Shown piece after piece: positions 5,093 through 46,261 of a stretch of DNA of 64,000 nucleotides; position 1 is the first letter of the stretch, and each line of letters begins with the position of its first letter. The DNA is from Squalus acanthias (taxonomy: Eukaryota): positions 51,398,001 to 51,462,000 of the forward strand of contig CM059446.1 in NCBI GenBank assembly GCA_030390025.1, written 5' to 3'. Both the position numbers and the translations under genes were made by a program. Under the pieces are notes generated by a model that saw only the letters and a list, made by a program, of their open reading frames with translations, was not told the DNA's origin and searched no databases.

Positions 5093-5506
5093 ATGTTCTC
5101 CTTCGAGCAGAGAAGGTTAAGGGGAAATTTGATAGAGATGTTCAAAATCATAAAAGGTTTTGATAGAGTAAATAAGGGGAAACTGTTTCCAGTGGCAGAA
5201 GGGTCACTAACCAGAGGGCGCATAATTAAGGTAATTGGCAAAAGAACTAGAAGCGACATGAGGAAAAAATGTTCAAGCAGCGAGTTGTTATAATCTGGAA
5301 TGCACTGCCTGAAAGGGTGGTGGAAGCAGATTCAGTAATAACTTTCAAAAGGAAATTGGATAAATACTTAAAGGGGAAATATGTTCAGGGCTATGGGGAA
5401 AGAGCAGGGGAGTGGGACTAATTGGCTAGCTCTTGCAAAGAGCCGGCACAGGAACGATGGGCCGAATGGCTTCCTTCTGTGCTGCATCATTCTATGATTC
5501 TATGTT
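5093..5506 (+). mobile_element. Younger CR1 3' fragment
   Basis: Translates as FSFEQRRLRGNLIEMFKIIKGFDRVNKGKLFP (CR1 ORF2 C-terminus); TCTATGATTCTATG tail; ATGTT at both ends. Confidence 0.9.
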
Positions 5507-5687
5507 ACCAGGGATGATGGGCTACAGTTATTACATTACATAGGATTACATAGAATTTACAGCACAGAAACAGGCCATTCAGCCCAACTGGTCTATGTTG
5601 GTGTTTATGCTCCACATGAGCCTCCTCCCACTCTATTTATGAGAAGTCGCACAACACCAGGTTATAGTCCAACAGTTTTATTTGAAA

Positions 5688-5724
5688 TCACGAGCTTTCG
5701 GAGCGCTGCTTCTTCGTCAGGTGA
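5688..5724 (-). ncRNA. Minimal type I hammerhead ribozyme (antisense copy)
   Basis: Reverse complement TCAC-CTGACGA-A-GAAGC-AGC-GCTCC-GAA-AGCT-C-GTGA; one mismatch in stem II. Confidence 0.7.
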
Positions 5725-5731
5725 AATCACT

Positions 5732-5768
5732 TCACCTGACGAAGGAGCAGCGCTCCGAAAGCTCGTGA
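5732..5768 (+). ncRNA. Minimal type I hammerhead ribozyme
   Basis: TCAC-CTGACGA-A-GGAGC-AGC-GCTCC-GAA-AGCT-C-GTGA: stem I TCAC/GTGA, core CUGANGA and GAAA, 5-bp stem II, palindromic AGCU stem III, CUC cleavage triplet. Confidence 0.8.
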
Positions 5769-6917
5769 TTTCAAATAAAACTGTTGGACTATAACCTGGT
5801 GTTGTGCGACTTCTCATTTTTGTCCACCCCAGTCCAGCACTGGCATCTCCGCATCATGGCCACTCTATTTACTTCATCTCACCCTATCAGCATAACCTTC
5901 TACTTCTTTCTCCCTCATGTACTTATCTAGCTTCCCCATAAATTCATCTATGCTATTCACCTCAATCACTCAATGTGATAGCGAATTCCACATTCTCACC
6001 ACTCTCTGAGGAAAGAAGATTCTCCAGAATTCCTTACTGGATTCATTAGTGACTATCTTATATTTATAGCCTCTATTTTTGGACTCCCCACAAGTGGAAA
6101 GATCTTCTCCATGCCTATCCATCGAACCCCTTCATTATTTCAAGTTACGAAGAGAGACTTGAGAGATTAGGATTTTTTTTTAATTGGAGCTGAGGTCAAG
6201 TGATAAAGGGTTATGATAAGCTAATTAGTGATAGATTGTTTCCACTGGTCAGTGAGACTGTAATAAGAGGTCACACATTTTAAATACTCACATAAAGAAT
6301 TAAAGGAAAAGTTAGAAAGAATTTCTTTCCACAGAGGGCTGTTTGAACATGGAATTCTCTACCACAAACTGCTGTTGAAGCAGATTCGATAAATTCTTTC
6401 AAAAGGGAACTAGATAACTACTTGAAAAAGAGGAACATTAATTGGTATAGGGAGTGAGGCGGTGAATGGGAGTAGACGAGGTTGCTTGTGGAGAAAAACA
6501 CTGCTTTGGTCTTGATGGGACAAATGGCCTGTATGAGCTGCTGTACATAGTTTTAAGATGTTCTTTGCACTATTGGTAGGTAGAGATTTTTAATCACCAT
6601 CCTCACTGATTTTTTTGGGGAGATGTTCTATGATTCTTGCTCTTACTCCCTCTCTCCCTCCCTTGTGTTTCACTTTTGAATTATTTTTTGCCATTATGTG
6701 TGTGTTTGTAAACAAAATGGAAATAACATTTGTCAAATGCTTCCCCCCCCCTTGAATGCACTATTGCCATTAATAAACAGAGGGTAATGGATAATTAATG
6801 GGATATGGAAATTACATCATAATGCACCCGTGACAAAGTTACAAGTGGGTTGTGTGGACTGGTCATGGGGGACAGTTTTTGTTACTGCAGTTTGTTTTCT
6901 AACACTTTGGTGCTAAA

Positions 6918-12711: not shown

Positions 12712-12888
12712 ATAAAAGCAGAAAATGATGTAAATACACTGCAGGTCAGAGACAGAGAAAGGCACCATAACATTTCAGGTAGGACTGGGTTCTGATGAAG
12801 GGTCTCTACTTGAAATGTTACTCTGTCTTTCAGCATTTTGTGGAGGAAACAGTCTGTGTTTCCCCTGTGGACCTTTCTTCAGAACTGA
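12712..12888. mobile_element. Degenerate Penelope-derived element with decayed hammerhead core
   Basis: GTT-CTGATGA-A-GGGT-CTCT-ACTT-GAAATGTTAC at about 12789-12821, within arms homologous to 7812-7910. Confidence 0.55.
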
Positions 12889-27021: not shown

Positions 27022-28898
27022 TTAACTATTCACCCTTGTGCAATCCCTTAGTGCCTGTCGAAACTGTGCGTTTTCCTGCTCTAGTGCTCCTATGAAGTGT
27101 TGGCCCAGTGGCTGCAGCATGGCTGGTGGAAGGCTGCTGAATGCAGTGCGGGAGACTTCAGATGGCCTTGCAGGATGTCCTCGACCAGCTCTGGACCTGG
27201 AAGGCCTGGCTGTAGACTGCATCACCTCAGCATGGGCGGCAGTACTCTGGGCTGGCTGGATGACAGGCGGCGACAAGTGGCAGTGGTGGGAGCAGGAATG
27301 TTGTCATCCTGAGAGAAGACAGCAGGTTCCTGCTCCACTGACCCACTGCCAGGGCAGCACCTCAACATCCCTAGCAATCTGTTGGAGCACAGATTGCTGG
27401 CCTGCTGCGACACCGTGAAAGCTCCCGTCGATGGTGGCAGACCCAGCCACGATGGCAGCAGTCAGAGCTTGTGTGGCATCAAACTGAGACTGCGTGAGAG
27501 CAGTCTGAGATTGGATGCCACCAACCATAGACTGCATTACAGCACGAAGATGCTGCGTCGCTTTTGCCTGTGCTGCAATGGAAGCTGCCAGATCGCCCAT
27601 TACACGTGGCATCAGGTCTGGGTCACCACTGTCTCTCTGGGAGTCTACCATCCTTTGCAGACTGGAAATGATGGGCTCCATGGTGTGCACAGAGCCTTGT
27701 GCAACATTGGAGGCGGACTCCTCCATGCTCCTTATCATTGCTGAGAGGCTTTTGGGCACACTTGCCATTGCACCTATCATCTCCATGTGCATGCCCATCA
27801 CTCTTCTTCTAAAGGCCTCCCCATCGAGGTCCTCACCTGAGTCCTGTGCAACAGAACTCACCCTCTGGGAAGCTGGTCCCCGAGCTACCCTTTCCCCCTG
27901 GCCTTGCTGCAGCCCACTCGTCCCCGGTGCCTCACCCTGTGCAGATCCCGCTGCTATGCTAGCCTTTAAAGAACATGTAGTACCAGTATCTGAGCTGGTG
28001 TCTGTGGGTGAGAGATGCAGTGACGCGGTGTGTTCTTCCCCCTCCTCTTCTCCCGCCTCGCTCTCTACCGTGCCCTCAGAGATAGGCTGCTCAAGTGCTT
28101 GCTGATTATCTGAAAGCATTAAGGCACAAGAGTCAGCTTAAAGTGAAGGGAGGGGAGCAGGAAGGGAGAAATGCATGCATACAGCATGATTAGCTGGAAA
28201 GTGTGAAACGCTTGTGGGGTGAGGGGAAGCGGGATGTGAGAAGAAGGAGTAGGGATGAACATACCAATGTTGTCCCCAAGGGGGTCAACGTCGCCGGTGG
28301 CCATGGCACCCAACATTTGGTGCCCAGTGATTTCCAGCACACAATTCTCCAGCGCAGACAGTGGTTGGGTGTCGGCTTTGTCCTCCACTTGTGCGTTCCT
28401 GCTCCCTCCTGTTGTGTGCCACCTTGGCCTGCAAGAGAAAGGAAAGTGTGTGAGTGAGTGTGCAGCAATGTGTCTGGGTGTTGTGCCTGCCATAGTTGAA
28501 TAGCTGTCATTGTTTGCAAGGTGTGAGATGTGGGTGTGAGTGTTGATAGGTAGAGATTGTTGGTGGGTGAGTGCTGGGGGTGTGGTTCTTTGGGCAGTGT
28601 GTGAAGATTGTGGTACAGATGGTGATATGTAGCATTTGTTGAAGCATTCACTCACCCTGACCACCCAAGTGAGGTCGTTAAATTTCTTCCTGCACTGTCT
28701 GTGGGTCCTGGGGACCACAGTGCTGCCCAAGATGTGCTGTGCTACCTCCCTCCACATGGTGTGGAAGTCTTGTGGTGAGGTCTTCCTGCCACTTGCCGGG
28801 TAGAGCACTGCCCTCCATCTCTCCACAGCGAAAACCAATGCCGTCAATGCTTCATCGGAGAATCTGTGGGCTCTCTCCCTGGGGCGTGGGCCTGCCAT
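27022..28898 (-). pseudogene. Harbinger ORF2, Myb/SANT-like DNA-binding protein, three exons (28898-28656, 28428-28265, 28109-~27022)
   Basis: Exon 1 is 81 codons: RAHRFSDEALTALVFAVERWRAVLY..WREVAQHI..RTHRQCRKKFNDL. GTGAGT and GTATGT donors, TTGCAG and TTTCAG acceptors. Exon 2 is 164 nt, incompatible with its phase 0 to 1 junctions, so it carries a frameshift. Confidence 0.85.
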
Positions 28899-29684
28899 GA
28901 GCACACCTGCTTCAGTCCTCTGGCTCCTTCTCCTTGTTCTGCTTCTGCTTGCTGAGGCAGCTGCACAGCCAGCAATGCTGAGAATGAGGTGCTGCAGCAT
29001 CAATGAACCTCCCTGTTAAGTAGTGAAAAAAGCCTGTGGCAATGATGCTTTGTGATTAGACCGCACCCGATTTTGGTCCACTCTTTAAGCCAATGAGCTT
29101 GGGTTTTAAGACTTGATGTTGGACTCCAATCATTTTATTGGCCAGTGAGCACTAATTTTTGTGCGGTCTAAAGCATTTGCGCCTGATGCTAATTCTTCAA
29201 CTTTTCTACTGACACTGCCCATTCCTTGGCTGTAATGAATTTCTAGCCCATGTATCTTTTCCAGTTAGAAAGGGGGAACAGTCTGTGTCACTTGACAACA
29301 GCATCTTCCCTGATTTCCTCGGTTAATCATTGTCTACGGCACTTAGAACTGTGGGGCGGGGTCAAATTTTACTGTGGCAAACGTGCCTCTCTTGTCCATA
29401 ACAAACACTGCAACATCCAATACACATTTTAGCAAGTTGTAGCTCTTTTAAGTCTTATCTTTATTGCACATGTGGTCAGCTTTTGCATTCAGTATTTCTT
29501 TTTGCCTTTAGTCTTCCCCACAACTCAGGACTGATAAAAGTTGCAAGTGGCTGCCTGAATTGGAGCAAAAAAAATGGCTACGACCCTGGTGACACTTTCT
29601 ATTCCATTTGGGAAGCTGGGACACTCTGGGTGACTTGACAACACTCTTCCTCCTACTATTCCTTCTCCAGCTGAGATGCTGTGG

Positions 29685-44631: not shown

Positions 44632-45547
44632 GTTTTCTTTTAGTTTGGATGATCTTTTTACTATTTTCTAATTGAAAGAAATTCTCGATCATAGTCACTG
44701 GGCAGCAATGAAACAAAAACAAAGATTTATCACAAATTGTTGTGTCACACTGATTTTTTTAATATAAATTCAAATTTCATTTTTTTAAACTCGGCATCTT
44801 CAAGTCGGCATATTAATGCTCCATGTCGATGCTAAACACGCCAAGTGTCACGTTTTCCCAGTGATCAGGGTGAACCATAGGCGACAAAAGTACAGGCATG
44901 AACATAACTGGTAATATCTGGGGAGAACCTGGACACCCGTCATTAAGGGCTCTCAGATTAAATTCGCTACGACAAACCTCACTGTGCGGGGATCCATCTA
45001 ACAATGTACAGTTACAACCATTTATAGAACATAGCTAGAATGTGTGTGATTATCGCATCTTATAGCGAGGTACCCAAATAAATAAATTACTGCCGTTGTG
45101 TTCATGGAGCATACAGTTCCATGCCGGATGTCTCGCATTTAAACTTTTACCTAATTGCTTTTACGTAATTTCTGAAATACATAGTAGATATTTAAAGAAT
45201 AATACAGGGAATTGCGTTATTTTATTTAGTTTGTGAAGATACCTTCATTCATGTTATTCGGTGTTATAACTAGATGACAAGTGTTGGAATTTAGGGTTCT
45301 ATACTGCAAATTAATAGGTTTCAAGAGTAACACATCCGCTTCTCGAAGGCAGAATAGCGCCTCCTTATGAGAGAAGCTCAGTCAGCCATTTCCGAGTAGG
45401 GATGTTGGTGGTTGACTAGAGACTTGGCAAAGTGACCAGCTAGGGGGGGAAAATCACTTCCACCTCCAGTGGGGCACTGAACAAAACGTTTTAATTTTTA
45501 GTTTTATTCTGTTTTGCCTCTAATGATTTTTCCCAAACAGGGAGTTC

Positions 45548-46261
45548 GCCCAGCCCACACTGCACAACACAGAACAGCCCATGGACACCCAGCCCAGCCC
45601 ACACTGCACAACACAGAACAGCCCATGGACACCCAGCCCAGCCCAATCTACACAACACAGAACATCTCATGGACTCCCAGCCCAGCCCACTCTGCACAAC
45701 ACAGAACAAACCATGTACACCCAGCCCAGCCCAGTCTGCACAATACAGAACAGCCCATGGACACCCAGCCCAGCCCAATCTACACAACACAGAACAGCCC
45801 ATGGACACCCAGCCCAGCCCACACTGCACAACACAGAACAGCCCATGGACACCCAGCCCAGCCCAGTCTGCACAACACAGAACAGCCCATGGACACCCAG
45901 CCCAGCCCAATCTACACAACACAGAACAGCCCATGGACACCCAGCCCAGCCCAATCTACACAACACAGAACAGCCCGTGGACACCCAGCCCAGCCCAATC
46001 TGCACAACACAGAACAGCCCATGGACACCCAGCCCACACTGTGCAACATAGAGTAGCTCATGGACACCCAGCCCAGCCCACCCTGCATAACACAGAACAA
46101 CCCATGTACACCCAGACCACACTGTACAACACAGAACAACCCATGTACACCCAGCCCACCCTGCACAACATAGAACAACTCTTGGACACCCAGTCCACCC
46201 TGCTCAACACAGAACAGTCCATGGACACCCAACCCACTCTGTACAACACAGAATAGCTCAT
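45548..46261 (+). repeat. Minisatellite, ~17 units of 44 or 39 bp
   Basis: Unit CAGCC CAGCC CACAC TGCAC AACAC AGAAC AGCCC ATGGA CACC; register at 45581, 45625 ... 46021 (44 bp) then 46060, 46104, 46143, 46182, 46221, 46260. Confidence 0.98.

Follow-up and report, generated by a model that had tools for sequence, protein, structure and literature searches.

The 220-bp insert at positions 5640-5859 of the 64,000-nucleotide stretch of Squalus acanthias DNA analysed here (the window) consists of two 5′ leader copies of a Penelope-like element (PLE) placed head to head. A single insertion event is the likely origin of both: each of the two nicked target strands would have primed reverse transcription, and synthesis would have run off the RNA at its capped 5′ end. 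The insert lies between identical 12-bp direct repeats (5628-5639 and 5860-5871), which form the target-site duplication (TSD). It comprises a short arm on the − strand (5640-5727), which begins with the inferred +1 A (5727) and reaches about +89; a central junction base (5728); and a long arm on the + strand (5729-5859), running from the inferred +1 A at 5729 to the start codon, with a 42-nt tail (5818-5859) that finishes at ATG (5856-5858), where the ORF starts. The TSD, the 220-bp insert, the inverted arms and a one-sided tail of about 40 bp had been described in an earlier note made from the sequence alone, and their coordinates are confirmed. The 87-bp arms with a single mismatch (5711/5745) given there hold for 5639-5725/5731-5817, but the arms can be extended about the one central base 5728 to 89 bp with two mismatches (5711/5745 and 5726/5730), the short arm carrying the substitutions at 5711 and 5726. 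The description of the element as young stands in a relative sense only, with 2 of 89 arm positions differing, a perfect TSD and retained CpGs. The short arm has 1 nt of microhomology with the TSD at 5639, and the first five bases of the right TSD match the continuing template. The insert contains neither a TATA box nor an ORF: its leader sequence begins precisely where the promoter leaves off and breaks off at the start codon.

The insert splits an older high-copy host repeat (5540-6080, − strand; approximate bounds drawn from contig depth and paralogous contigs), which we take to be a CR1/L2-like 3′ end. Contig depth over this repeat is very high, and many paralogous contigs skip the insert region. 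With contigs aligned at 90% or 99% likeness, no piece spanned either junction, since the sequences on both sides are high-copy repeats, and the joints that skip the insert belong to paralogues.

The family from which both arms derive is abundant: the long arm gave 40 scored matches at 97-100%, and the genome-wide copy count proposed in the earlier note returned 97,107 exact occurrences of a 26-mer of the arm in the 3.7 Gb genome. At two loci (L017 and L031) the tail continues into an RT ORF whose ATG corresponds to 5856-5858, and at a third (L207) a frame open for 877 codons from stop to stop (about 847 from the ATG) matches RVT_1 with an E value of 2e-9. This nearly full parent-family frame (L207 3433-6063, + strand) stands in partial tandem with an inverted copy. 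Its translation contains a CX4CxxC linker, CHGKLCKTC, upstream of a GIY-YIG-like motif, VVYLIRC...C...WYIG, with two internal cysteines. Pfam gave no GIY-YIG match for the L207 ORF and the nuclease assignment therefore rests on the motif, so that, of the RT/GIY-YIG partner to which the earlier note had pointed, the RT is borne out by a domain match and the nuclease by motif. By these sequence features the parent is an abundant endonuclease-bearing (EN+) PLE with a single predicted ORF carrying RT with GIY-YIG at its C terminus, and it fits Neptune/Nematis, for which PMC8557442 describes a CX2-5CxxC linker upstream of GIY-YIG.

An inverted pLTR with a one-sided tail is the published layout of EN+ PLE units (Pen2a_Av, PMC3846280; general scheme, PMC8557442), and the insert has this layout of pLTR, inverted truncated copy, one-sided tail and TSD. 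It shares with these units the head-to-head inverted copy, the 30-40 bp one-sided tail and the TSD, and differs from them, as they are described, in that each of its copies comprises nothing but leader sequence below +1, promoter and ORF both being absent. The same layout recurs across the genome. An upstream inverted copy was found at 29 of the 30 top loci (one of only 19 bp), the tail was on one side only in 162 of 169 two-armed inserts, and the TSD measured 12-13 bp, the family mode, in 104 of the 155 one-tailed inserts having a TSD; the set of 169 was pooled from several selected searches, as were those behind the loop, variant and microhomology counts below. The locus is nothing unusual, one of thousands of by-products belonging to a known class. 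Palindromic targets were not significantly preferred (1.97 vs 1.87 pairs). Separate insertions at L039, L040, L057, L214 and L228 share one 10-12 bp target, as do likewise those at L005, L006 and L062; these reused targets lie inside abundant host repeats and hint at preferred nick sites.

The earlier note had seen in the insert a recently mobile non-coding ribozyme element, a reading under which it would be a non-autonomous palindrome transcribed and re-inserted as a unit. The exact junction of this insert is indeed common to 245 loci, and PLE proteins are reported to be capable of working in trans on sequences flanked by pLTRs (PMC3846280). However, these 245 loci make up only 5.8% of the 4,192 short junctions (head-to-head cores with at most 30 nt between them), which are otherwise varied, and among 30 loci sharing the junction the tail was on the left in 19, on the right in 10 and absent in one, with arm ends, subfamilies and flanks all varying. 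A self-mobile palindrome would have a fixed junction, fixed ends and fixed polarity, and none of these was found. With no TATA box or other promoter and no ORF in the insert, movement as a unit is highly improbable. Animal non-LTR retrozymes (10.64898/2026.07.22.740005) are likewise non-coding, carry a type I hammerhead and derive from PLE pLTRs, but are described as head-to-tail tandem units, whereas the window holds a single head-to-head pair with a TSD and no head-to-tail tandem.

TATATATG lies at −30 from the A of TCACTT in seven of the eight promoter-bearing copies listed and at −33 in the other, and both arms of the insert stop at that initiator A (5729 on the + strand, 5727 on the − strand). 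The rotifer pLTR described in PMC3846280 shares the TATA box and a TCACT initiator with the shark parent family. Of the 100 arms that come first on contig C1, 51 extend beyond −40; 12 of the other 49 end at −2 to +1 (p 9e-8), six of these at +1. Genome-wide counts were 5,418 arm ends at +1 (with a base other than C before +1), 3,559 at +2 and 835 at −1 (with a base other than T before −1). Roughly one in five of the +1 ends (five of 30 inspected) can be attributed to a subfamily variant, and the +2 count consists partly of another subfamily and partly of partners of +1 ends; the +1 peak is not exclusive. From the motifs and junctions together, we infer that the +1 A is the transcription start.

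The base preceding +1 provides the evidence for the cap. Where this base is templated by neither arm, all 31 junctions of one register and all six of a second had G, 37 of 37 overall, with no non-templated base at +2/+3 among the 100 of 117 junctions listed. In 91 of those 100 a G of the partner arm is joined directly to +1, as if a C at the cDNA terminus had paired with the partner G. Both arms belonged to the main subfamily in the 20 of the 31 extra-G junctions that were fetched, and no promoter-bearing variant that would explain the extra G was present in 30 loci. The G:A ratio was 55:17 before +1 by hand count, compared with 11:27 at ends near the cleavage site (+36/+37) and, again by hand count, 43:34 at −1; since G is also frequent at other ends, it is the non-templated cases that carry the argument for the cap. 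An extra G derived from the cap has been described for full-length L1 (PMC11702581), and its presence at these midpoints suggests that each half was separately copied up to the start of a capped RNA. A terminal-transferase activity of the RT adding C, independent of the cap, would be an alternative source of the same G. In the insert itself, the C at 5728 was likely copied from the mRNA cap at the end of the short-arm cDNA, although at this locus such a base cannot be told apart from the −1 C of the genome, and trimming of a longer cDNA could have produced the long arm. An arrangement in which both cDNAs ended at −2 and annealed via a G.G mismatch was considered and dropped, since the junction spectrum places ends at +1. 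A contig of run X3 links 5676 to 5729, one G separating the two, which is the extra-G pattern in another sample.

The outer ends of the arms bear on the choice between two primings and a fold-back, in which one cDNA or antisense template would snap back at its end and serve as template for the second arm, a route put forward for rotifer PLEs (PMC3846280). These ends fall mostly in two zones, about +86 to +95 and about +126 to +134, and after filtering of the 155 inserts the mean microhomology was 1.62 vs 0.94 on the short side (n=134) and 1.61 vs 0.67 on the long side (n=126), each above all 2,000 permutations. A fold-back does not account for template microhomology at both outer ends in two fixed zones. 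Loop II differed in length between the arms in 29-30 of 122 inserts (of 200 examined), and among 82 main-clade pairs the variant was on the tailed arm in 12 and on the short arm in nine; variants also occur in promoter-bearing copies, and such recurrent differences on either arm argue against one arm having been copied from the other, although gene conversion at a later time, or a hot spot of slippage, could produce them too. Markers of lineage were discordant between arms in seven of 122 inserts, compared with 59 after shuffling. This concordance, sometimes extending to private variants, would be expected of a fold-back; as it far exceeds chance, it also indicates that any two templates were closely related. 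Junctions fall preferentially at short palindromes, for example AAGCTT (7 of 50), again in keeping with snap-back, but the junction of this insert leaves a loop of only 1 nt and an antisense template leaves the G before +1 unexplained. Two first-strand syntheses on closely related templates fit these data better, and a fold-back is unlikely; in this respect the junction data depart from the self-priming proposed for Pen2a_Av in PMC3846280.

Under the two-priming mechanism, a GIY-YIG enzyme would nick both target strands 12-13 bp apart, and each 3′-OH, paired over 1-3 nt, would start synthesis within the RNA, one of them near +86 to +95 and its counterpart near +126 to +134, with the stretch between the two becoming the tail. 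Each cDNA would be copied through an uncleaved hammerhead and, where the first leader copy served as template, would end at +1, often gaining a C opposite the cap, after which host end-joining would link the two cDNA 3′ ends. On balance, we favour reading the mini-palindromes as an in vivo record of a dimeric RT-endonuclease that uses two templates at two fixed sites and copies to the m7G cap, giving strong-stop-like cDNA, with the cap-derived C joining the cDNAs. If so, it would be clear why the pLTR is inverted, why the tail is on one side and why tandem copies are needed, the transcription start would have been mapped from DNA alone, and the antisense self-priming model would be replaced.

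Several of these features have counterparts in vitro. PAc, a Poseidon PLE of Anolis carolinensis, is reported to cleave and extend both strands from two internal starts bracketing the tail, to use uncleaved RNA and to have been modelled as a dimer (PMC11167929); it shares with the family here the two RT start sites bracketing the tail and a hammerhead near the ORF start. In contrast to PAc, as described in that paper, the family here has a linker of the Neptune/Nematis type (CX2-5CxxC), its tail stops at the ATG and not within the ORF, its short and tailed arms use different start zones where no strand difference is reported for PAc, and priming involves 1-3 nt of microhomology where no primer homology is reported. 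L1 twin priming (PMC11702581) likewise involves priming at both target ends, an end-joined inversion junction and an extra G at full-length 5′ ends, but L1 is described as copying different parts of one RNA, whereas both arms here represent the same segment. A literature search over openly accessible main texts found no report of a cap-derived G or of two templates for PLE inversions. The layout itself is published; what is added here, at the level of the family, is evidence for run-off at the cap and for twin priming. The interest of the class lies in the origin of inverted pLTRs and tails, which PMC8557442 names as an open problem of PLE biology. The junction statistics predict a cap-dependent extra G, mixed templates in the arms and short primer pairing, all of which could be tested in the existing PAc in vitro system, making the mechanistic question a testable one.

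Each arm contains a hammerhead motif, with cores located at 5736 (+) and 5720 (−). The + strand motif (5732-5768) has the anatomy of a minimal type I hammerhead: stem I at 5732-35/5765-68, the C3-A9 core at 5736-42, an extra A at 5743, stem II at 5744-48/5752-56 with the G10.1-C11.1 pair, GAAA at 5757-60, a palindromic, loopless AGCU stem III, and C17 at 5764. This agrees with the core details in the earlier note. The complete hammerhead that it placed on each strand stands for the + strand but not for the − strand, where the motif (5688-5724, C17 at 5692) is disrupted by an A.C mismatch at 5711, in the second pair of stem II. An Rfam covariance-model search of the insert, one of the checks proposed there, gave no match to the hammerhead families and only hairpin-driven miRNA matches below the gathering score, and the putative hammerhead identity rests on anatomy and family covariation. 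Among the 82 of 100 arms that could be parsed, by a parser that itself fixed most core bases, stem I pair 3 was C-G in 52 and U-A in 24, and stem II pair 5 was C-G in 73 and U-A in four, with N7 free and loop II of 2-9 nt. The compensatory pairs, free N7 and variable loop II indicate that the source elements keep the hammerhead fold, in line with the PLE origin, inverted pLTR, tail and minimal type I hammerhead proposed previously. Position 17 was U in 71 of the 82 arms and is C in this copy; five of the 82 had a U4C core. Metazoan PLE minimal hammerheads as described in PMC4209133 share the extra base between A9 and G10.1, the G10.1-C11.1 pair, palindromic 15.2/16.2, a 4-bp stem I and the absence of loop 3; the family here differs in having U at position 17 in most arms, and in the lack of an Rfam match. 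Motifs on opposite strands 100-700 bp apart are already noted in that paper. In a cofold of two + strand hammerheads, the stem III dimer was not the minimum-energy structure.

Both arms span the cleavage site and their templates were therefore uncleaved. Capture of cleaved RNA was considered and rejected as a weak candidate, none of 100 arms ending at +36 to +38. In a second set, 8 of 100 arm ends were at +37 compared with 9, 6 and 8 at neighbouring positions, and genome-wide there were about 455 at +37 compared with 133 at +36, a roughly threefold excess; five of 23 inspected +37 ends were accounted for by 4-nt microhomology. The arm ends lying at the cleavage site make up a minor class at most. 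Joints ending at 5765, which resembled ribozyme-cut ends, were set aside because most copies differ from this one at 5764, which would halt the alignment.

Folding of the full insert gave a hairpin of −172.1 kcal/mol (z −26; 0 of 200 shuffles as stable), compared with −10.8 kcal/mol for the hammerhead-like fold of the + copy and −3.9 kcal/mol for that of the − copy. A read-through transcript would form this hairpin of 87-89 bp, and small RNAs are reported from rotifer Penelope copies (PMC3846280), so that the locus might be thought to act on its host as a ribozyme switch or a source of dsRNA. The earlier note had expected hairpin formation to compete with self-cleavage, but one hammerhead is damaged and the hairpin dwarfs the hammerhead fold, leaving no balance to switch; with the hairpin ahead by over 150 kcal/mol and no promoter in the insert, a switch is unlikely. 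Minimal hammerheads are, in addition, described as having no activity as monomers and low activity as dimers (PMC4209133), and no host gene was recognised near the insert (28 ORFs listed; four window frames compared with Pfam, with only an RT fragment matched). An effect on the host is scarcely credible. The predicted read-through RNA is one long hairpin hiding both hammerheads, an inert product, and the insert was likely dead on arrival; if the site is transcribed, it may be a source of dsRNA. Across the genome, thousands of perfect 90-bp hairpins could be a bulk source of dsRNA or of fragility.

Other features were noted in passing. Hammerhead-core-like motifs of other sequence families at 12792 (+) and 7901 (−) of the window are possibly the ends of other Penelope families. 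Beside the insert, at 5458-5586, two repeat 3′ ends, presumably CR1-like, face each other with 27-nt inverted arms and TTCTATGA-like repeats in between. A GC-richer segment at 27304-29015 (−) has two ORF-like frames, one of which looks to us Myb/SANT-like, and is possibly a Harbinger-type transposon. Elsewhere in the genome, the ORF listing of locus L276 includes an open pol-like frame of an LTR-type element (1-1455, − strand), and in the window a tandem repeat array at 45491-46256 has open frames on both strands.
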